From an uncultured virus (IMG/VR IMGVR_UViG_3300024255_000007) (lineage: Duplodnaviria; Heunggongvirae; Uroviricota; Caudoviricetes), in the IMG/VR virus record IMGVR_UViG_3300024255_000007: DNA of 64,000 nucleotides. One strand, 5' to 3'. Under the pieces are notes generated by a model. It saw only the letters and a list, made by a program, of their open reading frames with translations. It did no database searches and was not told the origin of the DNA. Position 1 is the first letter of the stretch. Each line of letters begins with the position of its first letter. Of this stretch, positions 13,093 to 30,021 are shown in pieces. Position numbers and translations under genes: made by a program.

Positions 13093-13649
13093 TACTGCTC
13101 CTTTAATAGGTTATCACACAAATAATCAAAACTATAACTATCGTCCCAGTGAAAACTTAAAACTATCCTAGATCCAGAATTTTCATTAATAACTTGGTGC
13201 CATTCTGTGGCTCTAAACAATCCGCCGCAGGTTGTACTAGGATACCATCGTTCACTAACTTCATAGTTTCCTTCTTCAGAATCCCAAAACTTAACATAAC
13301 TTTTGTCCCATTCGCCGTATACCGGAAAGTTTAATGCTCCAACTCTTGATTCAATATCTACATGTATAGGACCAGTTCCTGCGTCACTTTTAATAAATGC
13401 TGCATATTTAGGTGTAATAGCTAACTTATCTGTAATAGGTTTAAAACATTCAAAACGAGGGTCATTGCTGCCACAATAATGCATTTGTATGCCTCCTGGA
13501 CCAATATGAAACCATCCCTTGTCAGCTTTCATTATATCATCAACTTGCGGTTCGTTTGTATTAAACGGATTAGGTAAATTATCTAAAAGATATTGTTGGC
13601 CTAATTCAGGTGTCCAATTTAATTCTGGAAATTCCTTAAAATAAATCAT
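13092..13649 (-). CDS. Fe(II)/2OG oxygenase-like (DSBH) protein
   Basis: PIHVD, ALNFPV, WHQVIN, RIVLS; likely start MIYFKEF at 13649. Confidence 0.65.
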   Translation of the reverse strand: MIYFKEFPELNWTPELGQQYLLDNLPNPFNTNEPQVDDIMKADKGWFHIGPGGIQMHYCGSNDPRFECFKPITDKLAITPKYAAFIKSDAGTGPIHVDIESRVGALNFPVYGEWDKSYVKFWDSEEGNYEVSERWYPSTTCGGLFRATEWHQVINENSGSRIVLSFHWDDSYSFDYLCDNLLKEQ

Positions 13650-14355
13650 TAGTTTCTTTCCAATCACTTTCCATTATCATCCCAGTAAGTGTTACACGCA
13701 TGTTCTCGCCTGCATCAGAATCAACTCTAGTTATTCCGTGTACAACTCTTTTATTAATTAGTATTAATCTGTTTGGCTTAGGGCTAACAAACATTCCGAG
13801 ACCGTAATCTATAATAGGTTTATATTTGTCAGCTTGCTGAAACATTTCCATAGGACTGTTAGTGTTTGTATAACAGTCGTGATGCACAGTACCTTCTTCT
13901 AAAGGAAGAACTTGCTGATAGTCTACACTTCCAAGGGGGCATATAAGGAGTGTGCTATCCCAATTTATTTGCCAGTGTCTGTGTAAATAATAAGTGTAAG
14001 TTGTAAATCCTAAATCGTTGTGCCACGGGTTTTTACTGTTGACCGGATATGCATGGCAGCGCATCGCAATTTCTATATAGTCTTTAGCAAAAGGTTTTGC
14101 TTCGGGGCATTTATTAAGAAATTCTGTAAAGTGTTTAAACCACAGATCACTGTTGTCATTAAAAGGACCTTCAGTGAGCCAACGCTTATTATTTTTATAG
14201 TTTGCGCCGTCAGTGTAATGCCAAAATTTATCATCTGCACCTGATTGACTCCATTTGTCAACTTGTACTTGATTCCAAATTTTATCCCAAATGTCTTGAG
14301 GTAAGAAATCATCTATTACTAGTGCTTCTGGTGTGTTTATTACAATATTATACAT
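13636..14355 (-). CDS. Fe(II)/2OG oxygenase (prolyl-hydroxylase-like)
   Basis: VIDDFLP, WHND, YYLH..W..NW, PKPNRLI, HGITRV, RVTL. Confidence 0.85.
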   Translation of the reverse strand: MYNIVINTPEALVIDDFLPQDIWDKIWNQVQVDKWSQSGADDKFWHYTDGANYKNNKRWLTEGPFNDNSDLWFKHFTEFLNKCPEAKPFAKDYIEIAMRCHAYPVNSKNPWHNDLGFTTYTYYLHRHWQINWDSTLLICPLGSVDYQQVLPLEEGTVHHDCYTNTNSPMEMFQQADKYKPIIDYGLGMFVSPKPNRLILINKRVVHGITRVDSDAGENMRVTLTGMIMESDWKETNDLF

Positions 14356-15370
14356 AAGACTGTCGTTCGCCTTCTCTACTTAAATCTAGTGTTACGCAAT
14401 GTAATCCGCTATCCCAAAAGTACTTATGTCGAAAATCAAAAGGTATCATATCAACACCGTGTTTTTTAAGTTTACGTTCTACTTCAGGATCATGACCATT
14501 AGTTATTACAGTATTAGCATCTATGCTTACTACATTAATATCGAACACAGTCTCGTCTACATAACCGATCCAATGATCTAACCAACTTGTGACTTTATCT
14601 TTGTAAAAGTGCTGGATTTTAATATCATTAAAATAATCAGGTAGCGGCTTGCGTTCTAGTTTAATATAGTCCCAACTTTTTAATTCTTCTGGTATTGCAC
14701 TAGGATCCCAACAGAATAGCAGTCCGGGTTTGATTAGTGCAATTTTTCCGTCTGCATGTCCTGTTCTAGGTATTTCTGCCCATTTAACATCATAGCCTAT
14801 ATTACGTTTTATCCAGTCTAATCCTGCATATGTTCCTCTTCCGTGCTGCTCCGGTGCATAAGGCTGCGTGTGTAACAACATGTCGCCGCACTTAATAATG
14901 TTTGCTGCATGCCATAGTATTTGGCCTTCTAGTTGTTCGTACTCCTTGTAGTCGCTTTGTAGTAGCGGCTTAGGCATACTTATATAGTTGCGTCCTTCTT
15001 TGAATTTTTTAAGCATAATGTCTAAGAAGTAATCGCTTTCTGTATATCTATTACAGTCTCCACCGATAGTACCTAGTATTGTATTTCCGTACACAACATG
15101 AAAATCTCTAGGACATATTGCAGGATAAGGATACTTTGAATTCCAAGTTCTAGTGTTTTCTTTTAATAAGGGCAGTTGTTTAGGCCTATGTACTTTAACA
15201 TTATAACTTTTAAATATGTCAGAGAGTTTAGAAAAATCTTGTTCTGTTTCCTCTAAAATTTTAGCCATTCCATCTATAAACTTGTTATCGTCAAATTGCT
15301 GTAACGATTCTAAATCATATGTAGAACCTACTACAACTTCTGTTAACTTATCCCATTCAGTAAATATCAT
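14348..15370 (-). CDS. Amidinotransferase (glycine/inosamine-phosphate amidinotransferase family)
   Basis: TEWDKLTEVVVG, CPRD, GHADG and SGLHCVTLDLSR (catalytic Cys). Confidence 0.88.
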   Translation of the reverse strand: MIFTEWDKLTEVVVGSTYDLESLQQFDDNKFIDGMAKILEETEQDFSKLSDIFKSYNVKVHRPKQLPLLKENTRTWNSKYPYPAICPRDFHVVYGNTILGTIGGDCNRYTESDYFLDIMLKKFKEGRNYISMPKPLLQSDYKEYEQLEGQILWHAANIIKCGDMLLHTQPYAPEQHGRGTYAGLDWIKRNIGYDVKWAEIPRTGHADGKIALIKPGLLFCWDPSAIPEELKSWDYIKLERKPLPDYFNDIKIQHFYKDKVTSWLDHWIGYVDETVFDINVVSIDANTVITNGHDPEVERKLKKHGVDMIPFDFRHKYFWDSGLHCVTLDLSREGERQSYV

Positions 15371-16542
15371 TTATATGTATTCCACCAATTATTATATGCT
15401 TCTATATCTTTATCATATTGTACCAAATCAGAGTTTGATAAAGAAACCATACCTAGACTACTTAACATACTAGTCGAAGGATTAACTTTTTTTGGTAAAT
15501 TAAAAAGTATATTGTGATCTATTTTTCCAATAAAGCTAGGAATCTCTTCTAACATTGGCCAGTTAATACTTTCAATATACTTAGAACTTTCTACATTAAC
15601 CCAGAATCTTTCATATGGCTGATTATAATCGTAGTAAGAAATTCTGTTTTTAAATTTATCAGTATTTAAATATAAATTACTAACATGTGTAGATAGTTTT
15701 ATGCCTGAAGATAGATAAACTCCGTGATCACTTATGTGTCCGTGTTTTCTAAAATTTATTTCAACTAGATGTATTTTGTGTTTCTCATCTACTATTACTT
15801 GTGCGCAAGTAACACCGAAATTCCAGTTTAACGCATCTAAACATAAACATACATACTCGTACAATTCGTCAATGAAATATCTATTCTCTGTATAATTCAT
15901 TACCGATTCTTTATATTGCCATAACGATCCATGTTTTTTACTATACTCTGTAGCAAGTAATAAATGATGTTCGCCGGATGCTGTTGCAATATCTATTGTA
16001 TATTCCGGACCATCAATATATTCTTGTGCTATATAATCGTTAGAATTTAAGGATGGTAAACTAGATAGACTATTCACATAGTATACATTTTCGCTTCCGC
16101 CACGACTTTCTTTAGGTTTTACAACTACAGGATATTCTTCTATATTATTAAGACTGTACTGTCTTGTAGTAACAATTCCTTTTTCTCTAAGTAAATTTAA
16201 ATACAATTCTTTATCTTTGATTATATCAATTGTTTCTAGAGAATTTGATTTTTTGGGTACATAACGATTTTGAAGTTTTAATGCAAGATCAACGCTATCA
16301 TCTCCACTGGGAATACAGGCAATTATTTTATGCGTTTGCGCATATCGATCTATTACTTCTTTAGTATAAACTTCTTCGTAGTGAAAACTCGTATCATCCT
16401 TTCTGTACTTGTTATGTATTGTATTTTTGTCCTCTTCAGACGACCAAAGTATTAATATCTTGTATGTATAATTGTTAAAGACTTCTCTAACTACATCATA
16501 ATGGTCTCTTGCAGGATTTACTATAACTACTAATTCGTTCAT
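15367..16542 (-). CDS. ATP-grasp ligase (L-amino-acid ligase-like)
   Basis: DKELY, YPVVVKP..SRGGSENV, QEYIDGPEYTID, VEINFR. Confidence 0.88.
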   Translation of the reverse strand: MNELVVIVNPARDHYDVVREVFNNYTYKILILWSSEEDKNTIHNKYRKDDTSFHYEEVYTKEVIDRYAQTHKIIACIPSGDDSVDLALKLQNRYVPKKSNSLETIDIIKDKELYLNLLREKGIVTTRQYSLNNIEEYPVVVKPKESRGGSENVYYVNSLSSLPSLNSNDYIAQEYIDGPEYTIDIATASGEHHLLLATEYSKKHGSLWQYKESVMNYTENRYFIDELYEYVCLCLDALNWNFGVTCAQVIVDEKHKIHLVEINFRKHGHISDHGVYLSSGIKLSTHVSNLYLNTDKFKNRISYYDYNQPYERFWVNVESSKYIESINWPMLEEIPSFIGKIDHNILFNLPKKVNPSTSMLSSLGMVSLSNSDLVQYDKDIEAYNNWWNTYK

Positions 16543-17576
16543 GACAAAAAGTTTTCCATCTTATCGTCTCTAGCAAGATCTAATGTTATACAATGTATTC
16601 CGCAGTCCCAGAAAAATCTATGGCGGAAATCAAAAGGTATGCACTCAATACCATATTTTTTACATTTATTAAAGATTTCTTTGTTATATCCGTTTGTTAT
16701 TACAGTATTCTCGTCAATACTTACTACATTAACATCAAAGATTGTTTCCATAGGTAAGTATTCAAATCCTACCCAGTGCGGCATATCTTTCATTATAACT
16801 TCGTTGTAAAAGTCATTTCTAATTCTATTTTTTACATGTTGGGGCAATTCGTGTTTGTCAACTACTATTCTATCCCAATCTTGCATCTCTTTAGGTACAA
16901 GACTTTCATCGTGAATCATTAATAATCCAGGTTTTAACAAAGCTATCTTTCCGTCTACATGTCCAGCAGCAGGAACTTCAGCCCAGTTAACATCGTAACC
17001 AATGTTTTTCTTAACCCAATTAAATCCTGCGTTAGTACCTCGACCTTTTTGGTTAATAGGCCGATCTGCATATTCTTGAGTATCATGAGGCCTAGAATGG
17101 ATTAATGTGTTGCCGCACTTTATAATATTTGCAGCATGATATAATGGCATATTATCATGATCGGCATAGTTTGCATAATGATTCGGAAGTAGCGGTTTAG
17201 GCATACTAATAAAGTTTCTTCCTTCATTAGCCTTTTCGTTCATAATATTGTAGAAAAATAAACTTTCAAGGTATCGATTTGGATCGCCGCCTATCGTTGA
17301 CAATATGTTATTTCCGTATACTATATGGAAGTCTCGAGGACATATTGCAGGCAATGGATACTTAGTTGCCCATTGATTAGTTTTAATTTCATTCAAAGAA
17401 ACATTATCTGGTCTACGTACTTTGACACCGGCATCTTTGAAGATTTTATTTAATACTTGAAAATCTTCTTCTGTTTCTTCTAATACTTTTTTAAGAAAGT
17501 CAGACTCTACTTCGTCAGGATCGTAAACTTTTCCAACTACTACTTCTTTTAATTTCCCCCATTCTGTCCAAATCAT
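16539..17576 (-). CDS. Amidinotransferase, second paralog
   Basis: TEWGKLKEVVVG, CPRD, GHVDG and CGIHCITLDLAR; start MIWTEW at 17576 (ATGA overlap). Confidence 0.88.
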   Translation of the reverse strand: MIWTEWGKLKEVVVGKVYDPDEVESDFLKKVLEETEEDFQVLNKIFKDAGVKVRRPDNVSLNEIKTNQWATKYPLPAICPRDFHIVYGNNILSTIGGDPNRYLESLFFYNIMNEKANEGRNFISMPKPLLPNHYANYADHDNMPLYHAANIIKCGNTLIHSRPHDTQEYADRPINQKGRGTNAGFNWVKKNIGYDVNWAEVPAAGHVDGKIALLKPGLLMIHDESLVPKEMQDWDRIVVDKHELPQHVKNRIRNDFYNEVIMKDMPHWVGFEYLPMETIFDVNVVSIDENTVITNGYNKEIFNKCKKYGIECIPFDFRHRFFWDCGIHCITLDLARDDKMENFLS

Positions 17577-18202
17577 ACTTGACTCCATTGCGACGATACA
17601 TAAGTTCCTTTAGAACCAATATTCATCCCTATACTAATTCTTATACTATCAGTTTTATTTTTTTCTGTAAAGTGTCTAATATATCCCGGAAACATCATTA
17701 GATCGTTTTGCTGCACATTCATAGTTTGTGCAAACTCATCAAACGGAAAGTTTACAGGTTGCGAACCTAGTAGTGCTTCTAACGGATGTTGTAATGTTAG
17801 ATCGCCTGCGTTATCTGTTTTATCTAGATAAAACACGGCTGTAATAGGTGTCGGACCATGAAAATGACTAGGAACAAATCCTCCCCGTGTACTTAATGTT
17901 GCCCACATTTCTTGTATGTACGGCTGAAGGTCAGGATGATAGTTTAGTTCTTTCCAGTACTCGGCTAAGGCTGTATTAACTTCTTTTACAAGTAGATCAG
18001 ACTCTTCCCAAGTTTGCATATGGCGTTCAATTCCATATGTATTAATTGTATTACCGTCTTTCATACCTACTACGCTTATATGATCGCCGTAGTCTTCTAC
18101 ATCCATAAGTTTTAATACTCGTTGTCGAAAACTTTGAAGATTTAAGTCTCCTAAATTTTTCTTGTAAATTGGAATACTAAACATTTGTTCTACATTAGGC
18201 AT
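17573..18202 (-). CDS. Putative Fe(II)/2OG oxygenase (TIGR02466-like)
   Basis: MFSIPIY, SHFH, AVFYL, MFPGYIRH, RISIGMN. Confidence 0.8.
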   Translation of the reverse strand: MPNVEQMFSIPIYKKNLGDLNLQSFRQRVLKLMDVEDYGDHISVVGMKDGNTINTYGIERHMQTWEESDLLVKEVNTALAEYWKELNYHPDLQPYIQEMWATLSTRGGFVPSHFHGPTPITAVFYLDKTDNAGDLTLQHPLEALLGSQPVNFPFDEFAQTMNVQQNDLMMFPGYIRHFTEKNKTDSIRISIGMNIGSKGTYVSSQWSQV

Positions 18203-18635
18203 TTTCGGTTATCTCTTTCAAATAGTGCTCAGGCCAATTTTGATAATAATCTGTAGTCTGCAAGTATGCTCTTTTTTTGTTAATATCGCCTTTGTCTTGT
18301 ATAAAAATACAGTTTGTAAAGTTTTTAACAAAATGACCGCTATTAGTAGTACTTTTAAAGTACAGAAGATTGTCATTTTTTGCTGTTAATTCTTTTATTA
18401 CTTGATCAACATTTAATAAATTATCATTTAACCAAGCTACTCCTAGTTTATACTGTTTGTTGTCAAACTTTGCACAAGCATTAAATACGTCTTGAGTTGC
18501 ATCGATAAATTGTATTTCATTTTTCAACCTGGCTGTTTTAGCAAACGGACATACTGGATATCCGTTATCTTGCACAGGCTCTATATATTCTATTGCCCAG
18601 GTTAGAAAGTTATGTTTAAATTCATCGTATGTCAT
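18195..18635 (-). CDS. Hypothetical protein with CPFA motif (DUF1415-like)
   Basis: W...IE....G.PVCPFAK.A and C-terminal R..L..TDYY..W. Confidence 0.6.
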   Translation of the reverse strand: MTYDEFKHNFLTWAIEYIEPVQDNGYPVCPFAKTARLKNEIQFIDATQDVFNACAKFDNKQYKLGVAWLNDNLLNVDQVIKELTAKNDNLLYFKSTTNSGHFVKNFTNCIFIQDKGDINKKRAYLQTTDYYQNWPEHYLKEITENA

Positions 18636-18653
18636 AGCTATGACAATATTTAT
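18630..18653 (-). promoter_or_regulatory. ATAAATA motif plus 16-bp palindrome containing the start codon
   Basis: TATTTAT 18647-18653 (ATAAATA on minus); TGTCATAGCTATGACA 18630-18645 is a perfect palindrome that includes the ATG at 18635. Confidence 0.65.
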
Positions 18654-18667
18654 GGTGTAGAAGTGTG

Positions 18668-19237
18668 TTATTTGAGTAATGTGGCTACTAGGTGTACGCG
18701 ATCTTCGAGACTAGCATTCATTGCAGTATGCTTTACTAAAGTATTAGTAAGCCACCAAGTATGCTGCGGAAGATGTTTTATTTCTTCTTCAATGATCATA
18801 AAACAACCTTCTTGTGTTTTAATAGGATAGTGTATGCGTTTAGTATCATCCACGTGCCAACTTAAACAAGTCTTAGGTGGGCTTTTCATTAGTCTAACTC
18901 TGCCTACATTATAATTTTCTTTTAATACATTGTAAAGATCTTCAAACACAGTATTTTTAAATACGTTACACAAATTTGTAAAGTCTGCTTCTTTTAACGG
19001 TGTTTCTCTTTTAGCAGGTATATGGCGCATATGACCTTTTTCGTCATAAACTTCTTCACCATTGGACCAATCATAAAACAAACTTCCTGCTCCATATAAA
19101 AAATTATCTTCCTCGCCTTTTACAGTATTGATACAAATTTGATTTAAATCTGTCCAATGCACAACTTTATCTTCAAGCATATTATCTAATATGCTTTTTA
19201 TATCATAGTTCGGAAGATTTAATTTTTCAAAATTCAT
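18668..19237 (-). CDS. Fe(II)/2OG oxygenase, aspartyl/asparaginyl beta-hydroxylase-like
   Basis: GRVRLM, SWHVD, RIHYPI, HTAMN, RVHLV; start MNFEKL at 19237 (ATGA overlap). Confidence 0.82.
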   Translation of the reverse strand: MNFEKLNLPNYDIKSILDNMLEDKVVHWTDLNQICINTVKGEEDNFLYGAGSLFYDWSNGEEVYDEKGHMRHIPAKRETPLKEADFTNLCNVFKNTVFEDLYNVLKENYNVGRVRLMKSPPKTCLSWHVDDTKRIHYPIKTQEGCFMIIEEEIKHLPQHTWWLTNTLVKHTAMNASLEDRVHLVATLLK

Positions 19238-19983
19238 TCTAATTTTCCAAATGCGTATATACGTTCTGCACAAAAGAAACAATAACCACAATGTTTCCAT
19301 TCGTGCGAATGTTTTTGCTCTAATTTATGTTCTTGCCATCTAGTTTCGCAACTATAGCTTAAAGGATATAAGTCGTCTAGTCTATTGTAATATTTATAAA
19401 CTTCAGCAGTAAGCTTTTTATCTTTGTGTACAAACGGTCTAATATTGATAAAATGTCCTGTATCAATTACATTTTGTCCATATTTGTTTTTTCCTAAGTC
19501 TCTATCAAAGTCTCTTTTTACGATATGCTTCTTAGTCAACTCAAATAATTTATCGTCTGGATAATATTGTCTTATAGATTCTAAAAAATCTTCTTCAACA
19601 GGATTACTAGTTAATCCATTGTACACTGCATCAAAATTAAACTTTATATGACTTTCTATTATTAGATTTTTTTGCTCTTTTATATACCAATCTGCTGTTT
19701 GACGATTAGTGTGTTTTTTAGAATACTTAACAATATGTTCTTGTGGACTTTTTCCTGTTAGTTCTGTAACTTTAGCTATAACACGTTTTGCACCTTTACT
19801 ATACCAAGGTTTAAATTTAGTATCAAGAGACATTGGATATATGTTTACATCGTCTCTATCTTTATAATGATCACAAATAGCATAATACATAATTGCACTA
19901 TCTGCGCCTCCTGATAATTTAACTCCTATGTTTTTCCAATTGTCGTTAAAGAAAAACATTTCTTTAATTTCTTGTTCAGTCAT
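19234..19983 (-). CDS. QueC-like PP-loop ATP pyrophosphatase
   Basis: LSGGADSA PP-loop, RPF..KDK, SCE...HCGYCFFCAER Zn-site pattern. Confidence 0.8.
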   Translation of the reverse strand: MTEQEIKEMFFFNDNWKNIGVKLSGGADSAIMYYAICDHYKDRDDVNIYPMSLDTKFKPWYSKGAKRVIAKVTELTGKSPQEHIVKYSKKHTNRQTADWYIKEQKNLIIESHIKFNFDAVYNGLTSNPVEEDFLESIRQYYPDDKLFELTKKHIVKRDFDRDLGKNKYGQNVIDTGHFINIRPFVHKDKKLTAEVYKYYNRLDDLYPLSYSCETRWQEHKLEQKHSHEWKHCGYCFFCAERIYAFGKLE

Positions 19984-20875
19984 AAATTTCAACCCTATCT
20001 ATATTATTGTATTCAGATATTGCTAGTACTATTTCTTTAGAAGTTAGAGAACTTTCTAACATGGCAACCGGAATATTTCCAATTGCATTTTTCGGATCTC
20101 CCTTTGTAAACCCTAATGCAGTTAAATAATTATTATTTTGATCCCACCATAGATCCATGCCTTGTAAAAAGTTTTCAACTGTTTCTATAGGTCGATTAAA
20201 AAAATAAGCTGTAAAATCAGGACTGTACCATTTTAACGGACGTATATTATCTTCCCCAACAATATCATCATTATCTTTATATACATCATACAACGGTTTT
20301 CCTACTTCGCAATAATTGATATATACTTCTCCAAATTTTCTATGTAAAGTAAAGTATTCATAATCGTTATCTGCTAGCAATTCTTTTTTCCTTCCCTTAA
20401 AAGTTACTACAATTCTAGGAGATACTTTTGATGTATTAATTGTGTTTTCTAAATAAAAGTTTTCTGCTCGATGTATAATAACATTATATCTTTCAAGAGC
20501 AAGACGTTCGTTAGGTGATGCATTTAAGTAATAGTCTGCCGAATTTTTAGAAGCACCTCTTAACTCTTCGAAGTAATGATGCAAATGATTTAGCTGTTCT
20601 TGAGGCATTCCGACAAATGCAGTATGCATTATAACTTTAGTTTTAGAATTTATAGTCTCGATGCACTTATTTAACTCTGAAACTATTTTTTCTTCGTTCC
20701 ACTCATCGTCTGGAAAATTATAGAGCCTGTCGGATTCTTTTACTTTATTATCTTTGTTTAGGACTTGCTTACACAACGACTCGTACCATTTAACAGCAAT
20801 AGGTGTATTGTATACTTTATATTTCAAAGTATACTCCTCATTGTCATTATTAGTAAATATTATACAAAATTTCAT
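19976..20875 (-). CDS. Unknown-family protein, paralog 1 (LxxxH..NxxxHxxE)
   Basis: LNHLHHYFE, NVIIHRAE, VYINYCEVGK and NAIGNIP; shared with 22603 and 30009. Confidence 0.75.
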   Translation of the reverse strand: MKFCIIFTNNDNEEYTLKYKVYNTPIAVKWYESLCKQVLNKDNKVKESDRLYNFPDDEWNEEKIVSELNKCIETINSKTKVIMHTAFVGMPQEQLNHLHHYFEELRGASKNSADYYLNASPNERLALERYNVIIHRAENFYLENTINTSKVSPRIVVTFKGRKKELLADNDYEYFTLHRKFGEVYINYCEVGKPLYDVYKDNDDIVGEDNIRPLKWYSPDFTAYFFNRPIETVENFLQGMDLWWDQNNNYLTALGFTKGDPKNAIGNIPVAMLESSLTSKEIVLAISEYNNIDRVEIYD

Positions 20876-21972
20876 CGTGTATGATCTTCTCTAAGTTCTT
20901 TATTTGCACATGTTCTCTTACATATATCTATACATTTAGTAGACCAAGATTTTTCAATTGTCGTTAATAATCCTGCGTTTACAATTTCCGTACCGGTGTG
21001 TTTGTGTAATAAATTAAAGTCTGTATTCTTATTTAAAGTTTTAAAAAATAAATCTACAAAGCTGCTGTATCCGTTATCTAACACTTTTTTGTTATAGTCT
21101 ATTTCCATCCAACAGCATGGCCATAATCGACCGTCTGCACTTATGTATACACTTTCTAATCCTTGCTTTACTTTACATTCTACAACAACAGGACCATTAG
21201 TATGCGGTTCTGATCTACTTTTATCTAATAAATCAAATGGCTGACTTACATAATTATATATTTTGTTGTACCATTCTTTAGATCTATCTTCAGCTTGTAA
21301 TTTTTTATTATTTTTTACATATTCAGTAGGGTATAATCGATCTACTTCGTTAAAGTTCTTATCAACTAAAGAATCATATGCTTTATGAAACCGAACACTA
21401 TCATCACTGTAAAATTCAGCAAATCCTAAATCTTTACTCATTTGCTTACACGCATCAATCTGATGTTCATTATTTCCAAACACATTCATTATCCAGCGAG
21501 CATATCCACCTGCTTTTATATAAGCAGATGCATTTTTAATAACTGTATCAAATCTTGTATTTCTTCTGTACAAGTGATGTGTATCTTCTAAACCGTCTAG
21601 TGCAAATTCTACAATAATGTTAGGTTGGGCTCCTAACCAGCTCCAAAACTCTGTCGCTAACCCGCCGGCATTTGTATTAATTTGTATTTCTCGAAATCCT
21701 TTGTCTAAGAATACTTGAATAAAATCTTTAGGGTTACTATGCATTACAATATCACCATAGTTACCGTTTATTAGAACTTTTCTTATTTTTTTAAAAAAGT
21801 CGTCAGATAATATATTTGTTATACCATCTGCTGTTAGTTCAGTTTGTGGTAAGTTAGGATATGCTTTTAAAGATGCTCCGATTGTTCGAGGACACTGAGG
21901 ACATGCCGCATTGCATCGTTTACTCGGCTCTATGTGTAAATGCTCCGGTAGATCATTATAAATACCAATCAT
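20872..21972 (-). CDS. Radical SAM protein with C-terminal SPASM/twitch-like domain
   Basis: CNAACPQC, GNYGD, ALDG, YISADGRLWPCC, C-terminal CKRTC; start MIGIY at 21972. Confidence 0.9.
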   Translation of the reverse strand: MIGIYNDLPEHLHIEPSKRCNAACPQCPRTIGASLKAYPNLPQTELTADGITNILSDDFFKKIRKVLINGNYGDIVMHSNPKDFIQVFLDKGFREIQINTNAGGLATEFWSWLGAQPNIIVEFALDGLEDTHHLYRRNTRFDTVIKNASAYIKAGGYARWIMNVFGNNEHQIDACKQMSKDLGFAEFYSDDSVRFHKAYDSLVDKNFNEVDRLYPTEYVKNNKKLQAEDRSKEWYNKIYNYVSQPFDLLDKSRSEPHTNGPVVVECKVKQGLESVYISADGRLWPCCWMEIDYNKKVLDNGYSSFVDLFFKTLNKNTDFNLLHKHTGTEIVNAGLLTTIEKSWSTKCIDICKRTCANKELREDHTR

Positions 21973-22619
21973 TTTAATCTCCCAAATGCCCATTGTCTTT
22001 CGTTGCACCACCAGCACTCACCGCAGTGGTCCATTCCAGGATCTTTGCTACTAACAAATTCGTTCCATTCACAACTTCTTGTAACTGGAAAAAGATTATC
22101 TAGTAATTCGTATTCTCTATAAATTTCTGCAATCTTTTTCTTATCGTAATTAGTCCAAGGTATATAACTGAAGTTATATCTAAAAACTTCTCTAACTTCT
22201 TCAGGGTTTCTCGTATCTTCGTAAAAGTTGCCGTAGAACTCATTACGTTCTTCTACAGGCGGAACATTGGTAATACCTGCATATAGAACATTAAATTCGT
22301 TTTTATCTAAATATTCAAACGGTAAGCGTTCTACATATGTATCAATATAATCAGGCGAGTAGTCAATATGATGTTCAAAGTTGTAATTGCCTGTTAATCT
22401 TGCACATTCGTACACTACATTCATTGCTGCTTTTGCGCCTGTAATGTTTTTTGTTCCATCTGCAAGTGTAAAAATATGCAATCTGTCAGTTGAATGTTTT
22501 AATAGGAAGTACAATAATACTGCACTGTCTGCTCCGCCGCTGACACTAATAGCATTAGGTCCTTTATATATGTTTAATTCAACACCACACAGATCAAGTG
22601 TTTTAATTTCTTTCAACAT
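21969..22619 (-). CDS. QueC-like PP-loop ATP pyrophosphatase, second paralog
   Basis: VSGGADSA, TRSCE...HCGECWWCNER.WAFG. Confidence 0.8.
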   Translation of the reverse strand: MLKEIKTLDLCGVELNIYKGPNAISVSGGADSAVLLYFLLKHSTDRLHIFTLADGTKNITGAKAAMNVVYECARLTGNYNFEHHIDYSPDYIDTYVERLPFEYLDKNEFNVLYAGITNVPPVEERNEFYGNFYEDTRNPEEVREVFRYNFSYIPWTNYDKKKIAEIYREYELLDNLFPVTRSCEWNEFVSSKDPGMDHCGECWWCNERQWAFGRLK

Positions 22620-23436
22620 CTATTAGTTCCACCTTTGTTAATTTTCTTTGTAAAATAACTTTTAAAAAATCTTCAGCATACACTTTATGCACTGTCCCTA
22701 GAGGAATATGACCTATTGCATTTTTAGATTTATTAATGTCTATGTTACTATCGTTTAGCCACTTTTTACAGTTTTCAATTTCTGTATGCTGCTTATCTAT
22801 ATAATCTGCTTGCAGTGTAAAAAAGAAACTAGGGCTAAACTTTTCTAAAACTACTGCTGTATCAGGAGTTCTGCCACTTTTATATGTTTTTAAGAAATCT
22901 TCACCCAATGCATTGTAATTTAAATAAACAGTATAAGGTCTAATATAAGGATCGTACAACTTATAGTCGTCATACTCGAGTGGAAGTTTTTCCACATTTG
23001 GAACTCCAGTAATAGGATCTACTATTCTAAATCTTAATCTAGGTGATGCTGATTGATTCTTAATCGCAACTTCTTCAGCATGATGTATATTATCGTTAAA
23101 CTGGTCAACTAACTTTTTTACTTCTAGGTATGTTTCATCTGTTGCAATACTTTCGTATATGAAATGAAGATCACTTAATTCTTGCATTGTAAATTCAAAC
23201 TTATTAGTAAACGATGCAGGAACAGTTCCTTGCTTAAATTTATTAAGATCTTGAAGTGTTTTTCTTAAATTTTTAAATTCACTACCTTGATTAAATCCAT
23301 TTAATGTAACTTCGTATGCATACAAACTATTGTCTAAACACTTTTCAAGTTGGGTTGTCCAACAAGTAACAAAGTTGTTGTCGTTTAAAATAATACTAAC
23401 TGTGTGTCTTTCAAATGTTAGGTTTAGAATCTTCAT
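22603..23436 (-). CDS. Unknown-family protein, paralog 2
   Basis: LSDLHFIYE, NDNIHHAE, VYLNYNALG and NAIGHIP; likely start MKILNL at 23436. Confidence 0.75.
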   Translation of the reverse strand: MKILNLTFERHTVSIILNDNNFVTCWTTQLEKCLDNSLYAYEVTLNGFNQGSEFKNLRKTLQDLNKFKQGTVPASFTNKFEFTMQELSDLHFIYESIATDETYLEVKKLVDQFNDNIHHAEEVAIKNQSASPRLRFRIVDPITGVPNVEKLPLEYDDYKLYDPYIRPYTVYLNYNALGEDFLKTYKSGRTPDTAVVLEKFSPSFFFTLQADYIDKQHTEIENCKKWLNDSNIDINKSKNAIGHIPLGTVHKVYAEDFLKVILQRKLTKVELIDVERN

Positions 23437-23716
23437 CTTTATATCTTGTATTTTTAAGATCAGCAACACAGTTACAAGCACGTTTGTCGCAAACTATAGG
23501 CTCAGTTGGTAGGTTCCAAACTTCGTCGTCTACGTGTCCTATAACTCCGCCGACTCGACAAGTACCTCTTATAATTGTTCCATCTTGCTTAATATCAATT
23601 CCTTCTAGTCCTACATGACAAAGCCAGCCGTAGAAATCTGTTTTTTCTGCTTTTACTAGCTCGTTAGCGTACATTTCTTCTGACGCTGTTTCTGTATATG
23701 CAATAATGTCTTTCAT
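23411..23716 (-). CDS. Stand-alone SPASM-like Fe-S domain protein
   Basis: GWLC.VG...IDI..DG....C...G.IG...LPTEPIVC...CNC.AD. Confidence 0.75.
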   Translation of the reverse strand: MKDIIAYTETASEEMYANELVKAEKTDFYGWLCHVGLEGIDIKQDGTIIRGTCRVGGVIGHVDDEVWNLPTEPIVCDKRACNCVADLKNTRYKDEDSKPNI

Positions 23717-24324
23717 GATCGTAAAATATACTCTATCTGTTCTTGTTTATAAGGAGGAATATACGCAGTTCCTTTTGGTCTAATACGTTTCATATGATGT
23801 AATATTTCGTGTTCTTTACAGAAGTCTACCATACTAGTTGCTCTATCCCAGTGTTCAGGCTCCATCATTAAATTAATACTAAATCTGTTTCCAATTTTAT
23901 TATGTACTGCAAGAGCCTTTTCTTTAAACTCCTCGTCTTTACAATAATCAAAATGACTAGAAAACTGTAAACTTCCAACATAGTCCGAAAGTTCTAAATA
24001 ATAATCCGTTGTTCTAGTAGCATTAGAATTAAGTCCCAATTTAAATCTTGGTCTAGTATTTAGATATCTACAAAAGTCTAAAAATGCAGGATTTACTGTA
24101 GGCTCGCCGCCAGTGAACCAAACTCGAATATAAGGATGCGATATGTTGTTTTCAATTTTTTGAGAAATATCTATAAGACTTTCGAGACTACGATGCGGGC
24201 TAGACATATCATGTAAACTATCAGGACAATAAACGCAATCAAAATTACAGCGTTTGCCTAAATTCCAGTGAACATAATAAGTATCTTTAGGTCTTGTTCC
24301 TACAGTTGCGACTATATTGTCCAT
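23713..24324 (-). CDS. Radical SAM core domain protein (no attached SPASM)
   Basis: WNLGKRCNFDCVYC, FTGGEPT, NSNA. Confidence 0.9.
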   Translation of the reverse strand: MDNIVATVGTRPKDTYYVHWNLGKRCNFDCVYCPDSLHDMSSPHRSLESLIDISQKIENNISHPYIRVWFTGGEPTVNPAFLDFCRYLNTRPRFKLGLNSNATRTTDYYLELSDYVGSLQFSSHFDYCKDEEFKEKALAVHNKIGNRFSINLMMEPEHWDRATSMVDFCKEHEILHHMKRIRPKGTAYIPPYKQEQIEYILRS

Positions 24325-25271
24325 TCTTTAGTCCTTATAAACTTTAACTCTTGTTCTGTATAATTATACATCTTATTATTGTTTGCCTTGTCTACAAGAG
24401 GTTCTATATTAATATAGAAATTGTCTGTGTTTATTTCTTTAACTTTAGACACAAAGTCGATAGCAGACTTCGGAGAGTTAGGTAGAAGCATCATTTTTAA
24501 AATACACACTCCTTCCTTTTTGTTATTTGCTATATACATTAATTTATCAAATAATTTGTTAAGGTCAGTAAACTCTTGGTGTACACTAATATGAGTTCCT
24601 CCTTGTTCTGTTAACCATAATAGTTTGTTCTTATTAGCAGTTCCGTTTGTATTAGTATGTACTGTTACGTTCCCTTTATTTCGACAATAGGAAACAATTT
24701 CATTATACTCAGGATTTATTGTAGGTTCTCCGCCTGTAAATGTAACTTTAATCCTCGGTAATTTAATTTGCGAGTAAATTATATCAAATCCTTTTTTAAA
24801 TTCCTCGAACAACAAATGAGGACTATGATTGTCGTGAACTGTACTAGGACAATACGAACAATCATAATTACATCGTTTTCCTATATTCCAATTGATAGAA
24901 AATAGTGCATTATCGCCAATTTTTTCGATGCCGATTACTTCGTCTAAATCTCCTATAGATTCTACTATCGGAACATTCTTATCCATTATCGATAACGCAG
25001 TGTCTTTTGTTTTTGGAATTTCGATATCACTTGCACAATAGCAACTTTTAACAGGACATATAATAGGTTCCGATGGCAACGTTACGTTGTTAAACAAATT
25101 GCCATACTTTCCACTCTGCTTGCATACATTACCATATACATCGCCTTGTCTGTTAATCCATAAAAAGTCAAATCCCGAATAGCATTTCCAGCCTTCAAAG
25201 TTATTGCCTTGCGTTTTTATTACAGAGTGATGACATTGTTCTATAGTATTTCCACTTTTAACTATAATCAT
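24312..25271 (-). CDS. Radical SAM protein with N-terminal SPASM-like domain (permuted)
   Basis: N-terminal GWKC..G...I...GDV...C...LPSEPIIC...CYC..D, then WNIGKRCNYDCSYC, FTGGEPT, TNTNG; start MIIVK at 25271. Confidence 0.9.
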   Translation of the reverse strand: MIIVKSGNTIEQCHHSVIKTQGNNFEGWKCYSGFDFLWINRQGDVYGNVCKQSGKYGNLFNNVTLPSEPIICPVKSCYCASDIEIPKTKDTALSIMDKNVPIVESIGDLDEVIGIEKIGDNALFSINWNIGKRCNYDCSYCPSTVHDNHSPHLLFEEFKKGFDIIYSQIKLPRIKVTFTGGEPTINPEYNEIVSYCRNKGNVTVHTNTNGTANKNKLLWLTEQGGTHISVHQEFTDLNKLFDKLMYIANNKKEGVCILKMMLLPNSPKSAIDFVSKVKEINTDNFYINIEPLVDKANNNKMYNYTEQELKFIRTKEWTI

Positions 25272-26416
25272 AATTCTAGCCACTCTCTAGTCATTGGGCC
25301 GATTACATCTTCTGCAGACATTTTACGTTGTGCTAACAATACTTCAAATTCTTTTTTAATAATTTCTTTAGAATAATTATTATTTCCCTTTACAAGTGCT
25401 TGTTTTAAATTTTTAGATTTAATACGAGATTTTATTGATTCTATAATATGTTCGGGCAAATTTTGATAATTCATTAAATGAGTTATTGGTTTAATTTCTG
25501 TACTATAACCTACTACGTTTTTTACATCTAGAAAGTATTCTTCTATTTCTGGAAGGTATTCAAAGTTAAAGATATTTACAAGATTTGAAACACTGATATG
25601 AATATTGCTTTGATTATTATTTCGTAAATAGTCTAAGTTTTTGTCCATTTTATTCCATTTATGCGGCCAGCGTATAAATTCATAATTAGGACCTATACTA
25701 TCAACACTCAATCTAAGATGAGCATGTTTCGTTTTACTTAAACGATTAAAGATTTCATCGTTTAGTATAGTTCCGTTAGTTGTTACTTCTAAATGTAAAT
25801 CCTTACATTTATTAGTATCTATAACTTCTGAAATTTTATCCCAGTTTTCCTTTAAAAACGGCTCTCCGCCAATAAGTTTTAAAGTATGTACTTTATATTT
25901 GTCTAATACTTCTGCTATTAAATCCGCAGTTCTATAAGACCCTTTGTGAGTAACATCCTTTAACGGAATCCAAGATTGAGGCCTTTCGTTTGGTGTTAAC
26001 TTTGATGACAACTTATCAATAAGACTACTTGCATAACTGCTACAGAAAGGACATGCAAGATTACAACTATTTCCTAGTACTACATCAAGTTTGTTTATAT
26101 CATATTCTGAGTAATCAGTTTCATTAATTTTATTTCTAGGACTTCGTAAGCCTTTACTTTCATAATTAGTACAAGCAATACACGCAGGGGGCAAATCGTT
26201 GTTGCGTTTAAAGTATTTCCTAAAATATTTTAATGATTTGTTTTTTAATAAATCATCAACTGTGTTTATTTTAACAGGAGCTTTATATTCTTGAGGCATG
26301 TAATTTGATGTAATATGGCAACAGGGCTTGATGATAGCATAAAGCTCTCCTTGATGGTCAAAGAGTTTTATTCGTATTCCTTTGTCAACATAATTACAAT
26401 AATTGTCTTTTTTCAT
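25268..26416 (-). CDS. N-terminal twitch-domain radical SAM protein
   Basis: N-terminal C..PCC..CIAC..E..G..S.R, then CNLACPFC, GGEP, TTNGT, FIRWP..W. Confidence 0.9.
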   Translation of the reverse strand: MKKDNYCNYVDKGIRIKLFDHQGELYAIIKPCCHITSNYMPQEYKAPVKINTVDDLLKNKSLKYFRKYFKRNNDLPPACIACTNYESKGLRSPRNKINETDYSEYDINKLDVVLGNSCNLACPFCSSYASSLIDKLSSKLTPNERPQSWIPLKDVTHKGSYRTADLIAEVLDKYKVHTLKLIGGEPFLKENWDKISEVIDTNKCKDLHLEVTTNGTILNDEIFNRLSKTKHAHLRLSVDSIGPNYEFIRWPHKWNKMDKNLDYLRNNNQSNIHISVSNLVNIFNFEYLPEIEEYFLDVKNVVGYSTEIKPITHLMNYQNLPEHIIESIKSRIKSKNLKQALVKGNNNYSKEIIKKEFEVLLAQRKMSAEDVIGPMTREWLEL

Positions 26417-27099
26417 TTAATACCTATCCTCATAAATCGAGTATATTTAGATAATTTTAGCGAGCCTTCATATAGTACTTGGCTCATAGAAGTTTGATTG
26501 GCAAACTCTTCTAAATTATTTACGCAATTTATATGATCGTCGATTTCAGTATAATTATTGTTCTGCAATATAACAATTTTTCCAGTAGGAATATTGTTGT
26601 ACCAATTAGAAAAGTTTTCAATATGTTCGCAGCTAGTATTGATAATAGTATCCGGTGCATCAGATAATTCAACTTCGCTGCCGTCATATCTTTTAGATTT
26701 ATATGTAAAACCTCTATAGTTTATATCGTGTATATTTGCAGTACTTGCTTTAAATCTCCAATTATCTTTAGTATGATGTCTATTAACTGTTTCAGCTATA
26801 CTTGCACAAGCATCATCAATGTCAAAACTTCTAATCTTAAATACATTAACATTACTATCAAATATCATTGCAGCAAGAGTTGCATACCAGCCAGCACATA
26901 AAAATACAGTACCTAAATCTAAGTTAGATTTTTCTAGCTCGTCAACAAGCCATCTCTTGCTTTTTAACTGTCCCCAACTTAATGCATCAGTGAGATCTGC
27001 ATCAAAATTATCAACAGCATTTCTTAAATTATTAAAGAGAGGATTATCAGTTAAAACTAACATCCTGCCAAAGATATCTTTATCGTCTTGAAATTGCAT
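26413..27099 (-). CDS. Class I SAM-dependent methyltransferase-like protein
   Basis: FLCAGWYA (motif I-like), RSFDID (acidic motif II), INTSCEH, LQNNNY. Confidence 0.65.
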   Translation of the reverse strand: MQFQDDKDIFGRMLVLTDNPLFNNLRNAVDNFDADLTDALSWGQLKSKRWLVDELEKSNLDLGTVFLCAGWYATLAAMIFDSNVNVFKIRSFDIDDACASIAETVNRHHTKDNWRFKASTANIHDINYRGFTYKSKRYDGSEVELSDAPDTIINTSCEHIENFSNWYNNIPTGKIVILQNNNYTEIDDHINCVNNLEEFANQTSMSQVLYEGSLKLSKYTRFMRIGIK

Positions 27100-29308
27100 T
27101 AAACTGCTCCTTTAACCAATCAAAATCATTAATTAGTCTCAAATTATCCGGCTTATTGCGATTGTCATAACCAAAGTCACGGCCAGCGCAAGCACCGCGA
27201 ATAGCATACCTTCCAAAGCGAGCTTGGTCTCCTCGTGTACACCAGACATCCAATCTTTTTTCTGTTTCATCATCTACTTGTCCTCTTATAGTCTTACTTG
27301 CTAGTTTTGCACATTCTCTAAATGCACTCTTCCAAGTGTTAAACGGATCAGTGTTGAATGACGTAATATTAGCAATCTGTTGCACAGCATTAAATTTTGT
27401 GCTAATACTAGTTGTCATATCCGCAGTATTCACATCAACGTCAAGTGTTTGTTGCCTAGGAAATAATTTTACACCACCGTATCCGTAAACCATATCATTT
27501 ACAGGATTTTTACTGCGCCATACAAATACATGATCATGCTGCCATTTAGGAACTTGGTAGTCAAAATTAAAATCATCAACAATTATTGCATCGCCGTCTA
27601 CAATCCATATCATATCGGTATTACAGAGCTTTGCAGCAGCTATATGCGCTTGGTGTATTCCTTTTACACCGTGTATACGTTTTGCTCTAGGAAAACGTTG
27701 TTGCAGAGCTATGTAGTTATCGTCTGCATTAGGTTCATTATAACTTATGAATACAATATCATAAGGTGTCGGCATACTAACAGTTATATCAATTTCTTTT
27801 TTATTTCTAAAAAATCTATAATCAAACTCTCGTTGAGATATTTCGTTTTCTTTGTGTATTAGAAACACACCGTCGTGATACTTATCGTTTTTAAATACGT
27901 GTACGTTATCGCGTTCATAATAAGGTATATGGTATTTAAAATCCCAGTCTACTTCTACATCGTTAGGAATTACCCAGACAAAATTACTTGTAACTGTTGT
28001 TAGTTGTAACACATAATCATCATAATTATCAACGTATATCTGTTGATATTTCTTTGGTTTAGATACAATCCTATCAACTTCTTGTTTTTGAACAATAAAT
28101 CCAAAATCAAATTCTTTTTGTGTAATTTTACAATTTTTGCTGCATAGTATTAAGCCATCGTAATAGTCACCGTTCTTAAATACGTGATTAATATTACGTT
28201 CAAATTTATAAGTATCATCAAAATTATTTTGGACTGGATAAACTAGATCAAAAATACTTTCATCTATTATCTGTATACGGTTAGGTATTGCCCAAAACAT
28301 ATCAGTGCTAGTGTTTTCTAATGCAAGTTCGTAGTCGTTATAATTATTAACAACAAACCTGTCATACTGTTTTGTTTTACTAGCAACTATATCCCATTCT
28401 TTTGCACCAACTAAAAATCTATACTCTATTTCTTTTTGAGATACAGTAGATTTCTTTGACAGTAACCATACACTATTACGCAGTAACTTGTCTTCTTCTT
28501 TATGCAAGAAAGAATGATTGATTTCCCTATCATATTTGTTGTCATGACTAAAGTATAAATCAAACAAAAAATCAGATGTATCTACTTCTGACCTTACTGC
28601 CCAAAACATTTCTTTTGAACTATTGTCTACAGCATGTAAATAATCATCGTATGTGTCAACTGTAAATATTTCATACTGCACCGGAGTGCTTACAACATCA
28701 GGCCACTCTTTAGAGCTTACAAGAAATCGATATTCTATTTCTCTTTTGCTAACGGGGGTATGTTTTGAACATAGGAATACGCCGTTGTATAATTGCCTTC
28801 CATTAACATCATGTACAAATGCATGATTTTCCTTTCTGTCATAAGTGTTATCATGACTAAAATAAAAGTTATCAATAAAGTCCTGATTGTGAGTAACGTT
28901 TTGAGTTAACACCCAAAATAGCTCGGTAGAACTAGTTTCTAATGCATGTAAATATTTGTCATAGGAATCGATATAAAATTGATCAAACGGTTTAGGCACA
29001 CTTGCTATGATTTCTAAATCTTTAGTAGACTCATATTCTCTTGTGTCTATTTTTTCTTTTATAACACTTAAATTTTTAGGTGCAAGAACAATGCCATCAT
29101 AAGTTTCTTTGTTTAAAAATCTGTTGACATATGCTGTGTCCCATTCATCAACTGTGTAGTCGAAGTTAAAGTCAGCACTCACTTCTACGTCTGCAGGTAC
29201 AAACCAAAACATTTTTGTTAGTGCTTGTGTTTGAGCCTGTTGGAAGTTAAGTACTTTTTTAGCAGGTGGGATGTTTACATTGTTTCCAGAATAGAATATA
29301 TCATACAT
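27080..29308 (-). CDS. Glycosyltransferase-like (GT-A) protein with five N-terminal ~100-aa repeats
   Basis: C-terminal YDIVFISYNEPNA..HGVKGIHQAH..WIVDGDA (DxD)..YGYGGVKL..AFRE, paralogous to 37850; N-terminal repeats. Confidence 0.75.
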   Translation of the reverse strand: MYDIFYSGNNVNIPPAKKVLNFQQAQTQALTKMFWFVPADVEVSADFNFDYTVDEWDTAYVNRFLNKETYDGIVLAPKNLSVIKEKIDTREYESTKDLEIIASVPKPFDQFYIDSYDKYLHALETSSTELFWVLTQNVTHNQDFIDNFYFSHDNTYDRKENHAFVHDVNGRQLYNGVFLCSKHTPVSKREIEYRFLVSSKEWPDVVSTPVQYEIFTVDTYDDYLHAVDNSSKEMFWAVRSEVDTSDFLFDLYFSHDNKYDREINHSFLHKEEDKLLRNSVWLLSKKSTVSQKEIEYRFLVGAKEWDIVASKTKQYDRFVVNNYNDYELALENTSTDMFWAIPNRIQIIDESIFDLVYPVQNNFDDTYKFERNINHVFKNGDYYDGLILCSKNCKITQKEFDFGFIVQKQEVDRIVSKPKKYQQIYVDNYDDYVLQLTTVTSNFVWVIPNDVEVDWDFKYHIPYYERDNVHVFKNDKYHDGVFLIHKENEISQREFDYRFFRNKKEIDITVSMPTPYDIVFISYNEPNADDNYIALQQRFPRAKRIHGVKGIHQAHIAAAKLCNTDMIWIVDGDAIIVDDFNFDYQVPKWQHDHVFVWRSKNPVNDMVYGYGGVKLFPRQQTLDVDVNTADMTTSISTKFNAVQQIANITSFNTDPFNTWKSAFRECAKLASKTIRGQVDDETEKRLDVWCTRGDQARFGRYAIRGACAGRDFGYDNRNKPDNLRLINDFDWLKEQFNAISRR
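27761..29308 (-). repeat. Five degenerate ~100-aa protein repeats (approximate bounds)
   Basis: Recurring YDxY..A...S.T.(M/L)FW..., NH.F...Y.G..L..K..(S)Q.E..YRF....KE.D...S.P units. Confidence 0.8.
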
Positions 29309-29314
29309 ATTTAA

Positions 29315-29343
29315 ATTATAGCACCTTTTGTAACATGTGTCAA
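29315..29343 (-). promoter_or_regulatory. Consensus sigma70 promoter, probably giving a leaderless mRNA
   Basis: On minus: TTGACA, 17 nt, TATAAT preceded by TGn, then 6 nt to ATG 29308. Confidence 0.82.
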
Positions 29344-29352
29344 CTATTTATG

Positions 29353-29377
29353 TTATAAACTGCATAGTTTATAAATA
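29353..29377 (+). promoter_or_regulatory. Exact T4-late consensus TATAAATA overlapping a 9-bp inverted repeat
   Basis: TTATAAACT-GCAT-AGTTTATAA (29353-29374); TATAAATA 29370-29377, 5 nt before ATG 29383. Confidence 0.6.
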
Positions 29378-29382
29378 TTTGT

Positions 29383-30021
29383 ATGAAACAAGCATTAATA
29401 ATAGGAGGCGGATCTAAATGGGGATCAGTCTTTACAAAAAATCTAGCAGACAACGGGTATACTGTTGATCTAATTACTAGCTCTGCATTTGCACACGCTA
29501 ATGTACACACTTACCCTATAGACTGGATTTCATCTAATGAAAATACTATAAGGCATATTACAGATCAGCTAAAAAACAACACATACGATCTTATATTCTT
29601 TAATCAAAATTCAGGCGGCGGTCCAAACGAACAATGTTTTGCACCTAATCAAAGTTATCCAATAGACCATTGGCACATACAAAACTGGGTAAACAGTATG
29701 TTACCCTACGTAGTTGTACAACAACTTTCTGATAGTATTACAAAAGACACAAAAATTGGATGGATGCTTACTGGATTAATAGACGGTAAAGATCAGGCAA
29801 TGTGGAAATATGCAGGTTATGCAAGTGTAAAGTCTACAAATTTACACATAATGCGTGGATTTGCTAATCAACATAAAGGAATATTTTTTGCACTTAATCC
29901 TTTTTGGTTTCCTGAACAAGAGCAAGAACAAGATGCCGAAACAATTCGATTGTTAATAGAAAAATTAAATGCAAACGACAACGGATGCACAATAGATAAA
30001 AATGGCAACTATTGGATTTGA
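29383..30021 (+). CDS. Short-chain dehydrogenase/reductase-like (Rossmann) protein
   Basis: ALIIGGGSKWG nucleotide-binding loop; YASVK (YxxxK). Confidence 0.75.
   Translation: MKQALIIGGGSKWGSVFTKNLADNGYTVDLITSSAFAHANVHTYPIDWISSNENTIRHITDQLKNNTYDLIFFNQNSGGGPNEQCFAPNQSYPIDHWHIQNWVNSMLPYVVVQQLSDSITKDTKIGWMLTGLIDGKDQAMWKYAGYASVKSTNLHIMRGFANQHKGIFFALNPFWFPEQEQEQDAETIRLLIEKLNANDNGCTIDKNGNYWI

Follow-up and report, generated by a model that had tools for sequence, protein, structure and literature searches.

Among described systems, the closest in setting to the DNA studied here is the host recognition cluster of pelagimyophages and cyanomyophages, which the available passages of PMC7029224 describe as a hypervariable, tail-side region with glycosyltransferases (GT8) and with radical S-adenosylmethionine (rSAM) cassettes that are gained and lost, and whose product was proposed there, not measured. 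We analyzed 64,000 nucleotides of DNA from an uncultured virus (IMG/VR record IMGVR_UViG_3300024255_000007; the whole stretch is called the window below), in which three kinds of gene follow each other twice between positions 19234 and 24324: an rSAM gene, a gene of an unnamed family that we call U, and a gene for a QueC-like ATPase. The island that holds these genes resembles the host recognition cluster in its tail-side position, its glycosyltransferases and its rSAM cassettes, and islands of this kind are already in print. The window differs in belonging to a jumbo lineage (near-complete relatives of 330-450 kb), and the passages on the cluster name neither U nor a QueC-like protein. Two other reports (PMC11898562 and 10.1101/2024.01.25.577265), in the parts available, merely list rSAM and QueC-like genes in phages. 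No description of U, of the triplet or of the QueC-like subfamily was found in the literature covered, outside which most subscription papers and supplements lay.

The window is phage DNA. The triplets lie within an island of tailoring genes, freely shuffled, next to the tail genes of a T4-like jumbo phage. The rSAM, U, QueC-like triplet seen twice is mostly local gene order and is not a fixed machine. The first-pass annotation, which had read it as one functional unit, noticed a real pattern and over-read it; the pattern holds a worthwhile uncharacterized family, U. Our preferred reading, to which we give a probability of about 50%, is that U and the QueC-like proteins are optional parts of a shuffled, tail-adjacent island that builds a modified glycan. 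The rSAMs would oxidize, epimerize or rearrange a sugar, which is the usual chemistry of twitch enzymes; U would be a mononuclear metal enzyme, with a His/His/Glu site carried by two helices of a bundle at the mouth of its cyclophilin-like barrel, that processes the substrate or product of the neighboring rSAM; the QueC-like proteins would activate a carboxylate by adenylation and turn it into an amide at another step of the pathway; and the glycosyltransferases of the island would attach the heavily modified sugar or glycan to the virion or to the surface of the host. The repeated triplets do not amount to a new machine, and the lasting value lies in the U family and the QueC-fold subfamily. 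U is a large family whose model is of high confidence, whose candidate active site is clear and whose link to twitch/SPASM rSAMs can be tested. Solving the roles of both would reveal the products of the enzyme islands beside the tail genes of jumbo phages, a matter that bears on host recognition and on how competing phages are excluded; new radical and metal chemistry could also emerge. The genes discussed are as follows, those of the two triplets first, in the order of transcription.

23713..24324, minus strand: rSAM1, a radical SAM core whose SPASM/twitch domain is encoded separately (PF04055, E 4.7e-12)
23411..23716, minus strand: free twitch/SPASM-like domain with C33, C53, C76, C81, C83 and D86 (alignment)
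22603..23436, minus strand: U1, of the U1 clade of the unnamed family U (alignment, tree)
21969..22619, minus strand: QueC-like 1, a QueC-fold PP-loop ATPase with a zinc motif (PF06508, E 3.9e-5; model)
20872..21972, minus strand: rSAM2, of a different subfamily from rSAM1 (PF04055, E 3e-4, below cut-off)
19976..20875, minus strand: U2, predicted cyclophilin-like barrel with an inserted helix bundle (AlphaFold2; conservation over 319 rows)
19234..19983, minus strand: QueC-like 2 (phrog_1550, E 9.7e-8; motifs)
18668..19300, minus strand: AspH-like (Asp/Arg hydroxylase-type) oxygenase (PF05118, E 9.6e-9)
24312..25271, minus strand: rSAM with an N-terminal twitch/SPASM-like domain (PF04055, E 2.9e-14)
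30009..30905, minus strand: U3, a third, distant U paralog with no QueC-like neighbor (hhalign 72%, E 3.4e-5; hmmsearch E 0.0017)
12256..41359, minus strand: tailoring island beside tail/baseplate genes (library scans of window proteins)

Gene order in the window and in other loci

The seven open reading frames named in the first-pass annotation, their order and their starts (24324, 23716, 23436, 22619, 21972, 20875 and 19983) were confirmed; all lie on the minus strand and begin with ATG. Beyond them, the window carries seven more rSAM genes, one directly upstream of rSAM1, and U3. The claims that the two rSAMs are of different subfamilies and that no recent duplication occurred also stood, since U1 and U2 share 21% identity over 247 amino acids (E 4e-7), the two QueC-like proteins 30% over 229, and rSAM1 and rSAM2 barely align (22% over 92 amino acids, E 0.06-0.12). 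Each triplet rSAM has a nearer paralog elsewhere in the window, and U1 and U2 fall in separate deep clades of a tree of 56 U proteins built by a quick method (support for the U1 clade, 100). The triplets are not duplicates of each other; they are two old paralog sets in the gene order of one lineage. Genes overlap at 18 of the 19 junctions from 12256 to 29308, and because this holds throughout the block, gene coupling does not set the triplets apart as units.

We collected viral loci centered on U (79 for U2, out of the 80 best of 198 confirmed matches, and all 16 for U1), reduced their 110 U genes to 45 representatives (dereplication at 60%, both neighbors required) or 64 (at 90%), and took expected adjacencies from genes shuffled within each locus. 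U adjoins an rSAM or split SPASM gene in 32 of the 45 representatives (19.0 expected, p 0.0005; at 90%, 48 of 64, 27.3 expected), and in 25 of 45 its neighbor belongs to the broad cluster containing rSAM1 (6.3 expected). A QueC-like gene adjoins U in 3/45, two of these being the window's own (1.7 expected, p 0.24; at 90%, 7/64, 3.1 expected, p 0.03). The neighborhood enrichment predicted for U in the first-pass annotation was thus found for rSAM genes and, at 60% dereplication, not for QueC-like genes. The order rSAM, U, rSAM (19/45) is far commoner than that of the triplet. Also within the viral U loci are genes for UDP-glucose dehydrogenase, DegT and hexapeptide transferase.

Loci chosen by the other two partners agree. 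Among QueC-centered loci (the best 80 of 504 matches), U lies within 6 kb in 4/80, all of them close kin, and neither a broader profile nor hhalign revealed a hidden U in the other loci. Among their 44 representatives the QueC-like gene has an adjacent rSAM in 22 (16.3 expected, p 0.02), an AspH-like gene in 9 (4.4 expected, p 0.02) and U in 1 (0.4 expected), so that AspH-like is a more frequent neighbor than U. The 80 loci centered on rSAM1 relatives (the best 80 of 511, chosen without U) include 21 with U, 43 with a QueC-like gene and 13 with both; of their 32 representatives, 10 have U, and in 9 of these it is adjacent (1.8 expected). A cassette of QueC-like gene, twitch rSAM and rSAM recurs with U between the rSAMs (for example L227 and L259) and without it (for example L226 and L265), and in phages it is commoner than the order of the triplet. 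In L099/L100, U and a twitch rSAM form a pair among housekeeping genes. U is thus a facultative partner of twitch/SPASM rSAMs, and the QueC-like gene is an independent member of the island.

U also occurs in bacteria: a sample of 401 genomes from the phylum of a Bdellovibrionota genome had U in 44, with at most five copies per genome, and a sample of 401 from the phylum of a Myxococcota seed had it in the seed genome only. An rSAM is near or fused to U in 7 of 16 wider bacterial regions, which had been picked for long frames or second U copies. A QueC-like gene is found neither there nor in 30 short loci. The bacterial neighbors of U include GT1 and GT2 glycosyltransferases, a DegT aminotransferase, an NDP-sugar epimerase, and an ABC-2 exporter beside a U-AspH fusion.

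These data bear on the view that rSAM, U and QueC-like protein form a dedicated three-step unit, in which a carboxylate is made and then adenylated, used on two substrates. The order rSAM, U, QueC-like is found in 3/45 representatives, above expectation (0.3 expected, p 0.002; 7/64 at 90%). The second triplet is kept in L010 (39/57/43% identity), the order is met again in the distant phage L366, where the rSAM is of a third type, bacterial locus L379 has an rSAM2-type gene, U and an asparagine-synthase-like amidotransferase in succession, and a QueC-like gene lies somewhere in 17/45 U loci. We nevertheless consider such a unit quite unlikely: two of the three cases come from the window itself, and L010, the third, inherited its copy of the second triplet; U is rare in the QueC-centered loci; no QueC-like gene follows U in L083, which holds the closest sister of U1 beyond its near kin, or in most of the U2 subclade; in L004 a single rSAM and a single U stand in a row with two QueC-like genes; U3 stands without a QueC-like gene; and the cultured Ralstonia phage RsoM2USA has a QueC-like gene without a detectable U. 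The fixed-order unit of the first-pass annotation did not survive this comparison. The chemistry suggested for it, with a carboxylate that is made and then adenylated, may still hold.

The excess of the triplet order and its return in L366 also weigh against our preferred reading of an island with optional parts that builds a glycan, as do several other points. The adjacency counts are not independent of shared ancestry. U has no rSAM neighbor in 13 of the 45 viral representatives and stands beside DNA polymerase genes in L013 and L014; of 27 metagenome representatives (78 loci, from the best 80 of 143, L294 left out), 14 have neither neighbor, 10 an rSAM only and 3, L366 among them, the full order; and the 30 best bacterial U loci (1.5-kb flanks) show an rSAM in 7 and none in 23. 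The presumed glycosyltransferases at 37850-38776 and 27080-29308 gave no library or PDB match. Metal binding and catalysis by U are deduced from residue conservation and helix spacing.

Protein U and its candidate metal site

The nearest known structures to U are cyclophilin-like proteins (the cyclophilins 2ose and 2mvz; TM1367, 1zx8; 3kop; and the N-terminal domains of the Pictet-Spenglerases McbB, 3x27, and KslB, 9k0a), with which the barrel of the U2 AlphaFold2 model (pLDDT 96.8) aligns over 116-146 residues (Z 9.1-11.2, root mean square deviation 3.0-4.3); the 30 top VIA rows are all of the cyclophilin fold (Z 9.4-11.2). U2 differs from them in its low identity (5-13%), in an inserted helix bundle of about 100 residues and in a His/Asn/Glu site. 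The bundle (residues about 55-150) matches only generic bundles in VIA. An enzyme on this fold has precedent, because the McbB and KslB barrels carry catalysis.

The family comprises 1,091 clusters at 50% identity, and scans of the window proteins against Pfam, PHROG and NCBIfam gave no match to U. The U2 model matches ten uncharacterized phage proteins in BFVD. The other searches were negative: Foldseek against the PDB gave nothing at E 0.001, a U profile against PDB sequences returned only de novo helical bundles (E 0.04-0.2) and no solved cyclophilin, tblastn of U2 against GenBank phages and a single-protein scan of viral contigs gave nothing, and the ESM Atlas held no usable match (best 0.86, a poor model).

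H99, E103, N131, H135 and E138 of U2 lie in the bundle, and Y188, G192, K193 and D203 outside it. Over 319 aligned rows, H99 is kept in 315, N131 in 317, H135 in 318, E138 in 316, Y188 in 315 and G192 in 315-318; E103 is kept in 303 rows and in 23 of 33 bacterial copies. In U1, H91, E95, N114, H118 and E121 are invariant in 76/76 aligned rows. The His and Glu residues hardly vary, and in the model they follow an i, i+3/4 spacing along two helices of the bundle. This suggests a mononuclear His/His/Glu metal site beside a pocket on the barrel, a site that we take to be similar to 2-His-1-carboxylate sites. The first-pass description of the middle protein as an HxxE protein and putative metalloprotein agrees with this, the HxxE being conserved and within the likely metal site. 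U3 keeps the N..H..E motif, not the first Glu, and has syntenic relatives in L083-L085.

U could instead be a noncatalytic rSAM accessory, for iron or cluster delivery, repair or scaffolding, in which the His/Glu site would hold cargo iron. His/Glu iron sites occur in repair proteins such as YtfE, U pairs with several unrelated rSAM subfamilies and is optional among them, and Agrobacterium phage Atu_ph07 has a U-fold protein with degenerate ligands among rSAMs that belong to another system. Fusions of U to SCP2, glyoxalase and AspH-like domains and the many rSAM-free contexts, on the other side, suit a small-molecule enzyme better, and the conserved Y188, K193 and D203 outside the bundle suggest a substrate pocket; we regard an accessory role as unlikely. 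Returning to the preferred reading of U as an island enzyme, we offer as a tentative extension that U founds a new class of metalloenzymes, with a His/His/Glu center set on a cyclophilin-like barrel, that finishes rSAM sugar chemistry in jumbo phages and predatory bacteria and that might, with new QueC-fold amide ligases, build an undescribed surface glycan.

Among the 150 best of the 1,091 clusters, U is fused to twitch rSAM, SCP2 and glyoxalase domains. P0161 and L404 are U-rSAM fusions. Three long homologs (P0221, P0232 and P0270) have an extra N-terminal region and low-complexity stretches, and look eukaryotic. The Atu_ph07 cluster (L116:10998-18647) is tail-side and contains four rSAMs, a cupin, the U-fold gene and one gene with a His-Xaa-Ser-like repeat ending, a candidate rSAM substrate in a cultured phage.

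The QueC-like subfamily and the radical SAM genes

With QueC (Bacillus subtilis, 3bl5; Escherichia coli, b0444) the QueC-like proteins share the fold, the SGGxDS loop, the four zinc cysteines and the equivalents of P159 and K165. PF06508 matched QueC-like 1 only and phrog_1550 both proteins; the model of QueC-like 1 (pLDDT 82.8) aligns best with 3bl5 (Z 12.7, root mean square deviation 3.0, 162 residues) and second best with Cap9 (9nto, Z 11.9). The assignment to QueC-like ATPases in the first-pass annotation is borne out by the fold, the ATP loop and the zinc motif. Motifs were counted in 89 family members, with E. coli QueC, which shows all QueC motifs, as the positive control. SGGxDS is present in 84/89, both window proteins among them, the zinc motif C-x(n)-CxxCxxC, with a spacer longer than x8, in 86/89, and the P159 and K165 equivalents in 89/89. 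The signature of QueC is absent or nearly so (YxQxHxxE, 3/89; VPxRN, 2/89; YPDC, 0/89; Y189, 0/89), all four elements being missing from both window proteins; the Y189 position is Glu in 84/89, and the QueC model TIGR00364 gave 19.7 bits against a cut-off of 150. The QueC-like proteins likely adenylate a carboxylate as QueC does, yet are not members of QueC. They form a subfamily of their own, linked to the island and not to U.

The protein deazaguanylases Cap9 and QatC of the QueC family are also near (PMC13329287, in the parts available): the Cap9-type Cys-Glu at the zinc motif is found in 82/89, and PF(x)4K is shared. The Cap9 motifs Y/FxQ(x)5E and YxDC are each at 0/89, no CD-NTase or qat gene is annotated in the window, and the QueC-like genes are phage encoded. 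The likeness to Cap9, together with the tail genes adjoining the island and the Atu_ph07 gene that ends in His-Xaa-Ser-like repeats, raises the possibility of direct, RiPP-like tailoring (as of ribosomally synthesized and posttranslationally modified peptides) of virion proteins of the tail or baseplate, with U as a helper that binds peptides through its cyclophilin fold and the QueC-like protein as a ligase acting on protein N termini, like Cap9 and QatC. This is unlikely: by eye no structural protein of the window has such a repeat tail, five of the nine rSAMs are of the N_Twi_rSAM type and none comes near the cut-off of a peptide maturase model, and the bacterial neighbors of U are sugar genes.

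Replacement of a missing QueC in a phage 7-deazaguanine pathway, with the island hypermodifying DNA, is very unlikely. Related phage records do carry FolE (5/5), QueD (5/5, plus both near-complete records) and QueE-like genes and a TGT-like lead, none of the related IMG/VR records has a canonical QueC above the Pfam cut-off, and all three near-complete records searched have island-type QueC-like genes. The deazaguanine locus of one record, however, encodes a DpdL homolog with the motif LxxxHRHxF. DpdL marks a QueC-independent route to dDG (10.1101/2023.04.13.536721, in the part available), so QueC is not needed there, and we downgraded the QueC-like protein as a stand-in on this finding. Furthermore, Y35, R99, Y131 and Y189 of E. 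coli QueC, which are essential for CDG conversion according to the available part of PMC13329287, lack equivalents in the QueC-like family, and RsoM2USA, which has a QueC-like gene, gave no QueD or TGT-like match. QueC-like genes do not cluster with queD, queE or folE in the window, and in relatives those genes lie at other loci.

One such locus (L201:301-6312, G004) encodes a TGT-like protein of about 540 amino acids, DpdL, FolE, QueE, a possible glycosyltransferase and UDP-glucose dehydrogenase. The TGT-like protein has no Pfam, PHROG, NCBIfam or PDB match, and its label comes from an Atlas lead (0.93; PF01702 on 17% of that cluster). In another phage group a lone QueC-like gene lies beside the terminase large subunit gene, far from any rSAM (L164, L169, L171, L176, L177, L180, L182, L184, L185, L187-L191 and L193).

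Both triplet rSAMs have the CxxxCxxC motif; rSAM1 exceeds the PF04055 cut-off, and rSAM2 falls short of it (21.5 against 29.5 bits). The nearest described type is N_Twi_rSAM (NF033640), whose cut-off is passed by 5/9 window rSAMs and to whose types the bacterial partners of U belong. The triplet rSAMs differ: their auxiliary domains are C-terminal or split, and they score 34.7 and 30.9 bits against a cut-off of 170. A paralog of rSAM2 is encoded at 32682-33917 (29% over 341 amino acids, E 8e-34). The product of 24312-25271 is a paralog of the split pair (30% to 23713-24324, 30% to 23411-23716), and its gene is conserved upstream of the pair in the U1 clade. In the free SPASM-like domain, C33, C76, C81, C83 and D86 are invariant among 40 aligned relatives and C53 is kept in at least 90% of rows. 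The split is no assembly error, because it is also present in relatives and in L294, a near-identical independent contig; rSAM1 also has unsplit relatives of about 300 amino acids. The auxiliary domain is N-terminal in 24312-25271 and a separate downstream gene for the adjacent, paralogous 23713-24324. In L087/L088 a QueC-like gene is located between the split halves.

The tail-side island

The island (12.3-41.3 kb) contains 9 rSAMs, several oxygenases, an ATP-grasp protein, a pyridoxal phosphate enzyme and a glycogenin/GT8-like pair (39369/40171; glycogenin match, E 7e-4); an SDR-like gene within it is on the plus strand. Baseplate and tail genes run from 41.4 kb onward, RNase H-like and MoxR/vWA genes lie at the left of the window, and no tRNA gene was found in the 64,000 nucleotides. 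By their motifs, with none of the libraries confirming the labels, we take 26413-27099 to encode a methyltransferase, 14348 and 16539 amidinotransferase-like proteins, and 37850 and 27080 glycosyltransferases. In one metatranscriptome run, 17% of the words were present, and 24 of 30 bins were covered by 30 short contigs; neither the level of transcription nor an operon can be read from this.

In the 742-amino-acid product of 27080-29308, the N-terminal region contains an internal repeat and the C-terminal domain is related to 37850-38776. At 14348-17588, two paralogs (51% identical; phrog_25854) flank the ATP-grasp gene; this gene and one of the paralogs are absent from L001-L003. A plus-strand block at 8945-12305 that converges on the island encodes a ferritin-like protein, an AspH-like protein and two proteins that resemble fatty-acid desaturases.

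The same core follows the tail genes of Ralstonia phage RsoM2USA (344 kb). The cluster of this phage (L110:11436-17797, right after these genes) comprises a GT8-like pair, a glycosyltransferase-like gene, a twitch rSAM, a second glycosyltransferase-like gene and a methyltransferase-like gene. This cluster looks like a minimal island core, and the window island looks like that core with many inserted genes.

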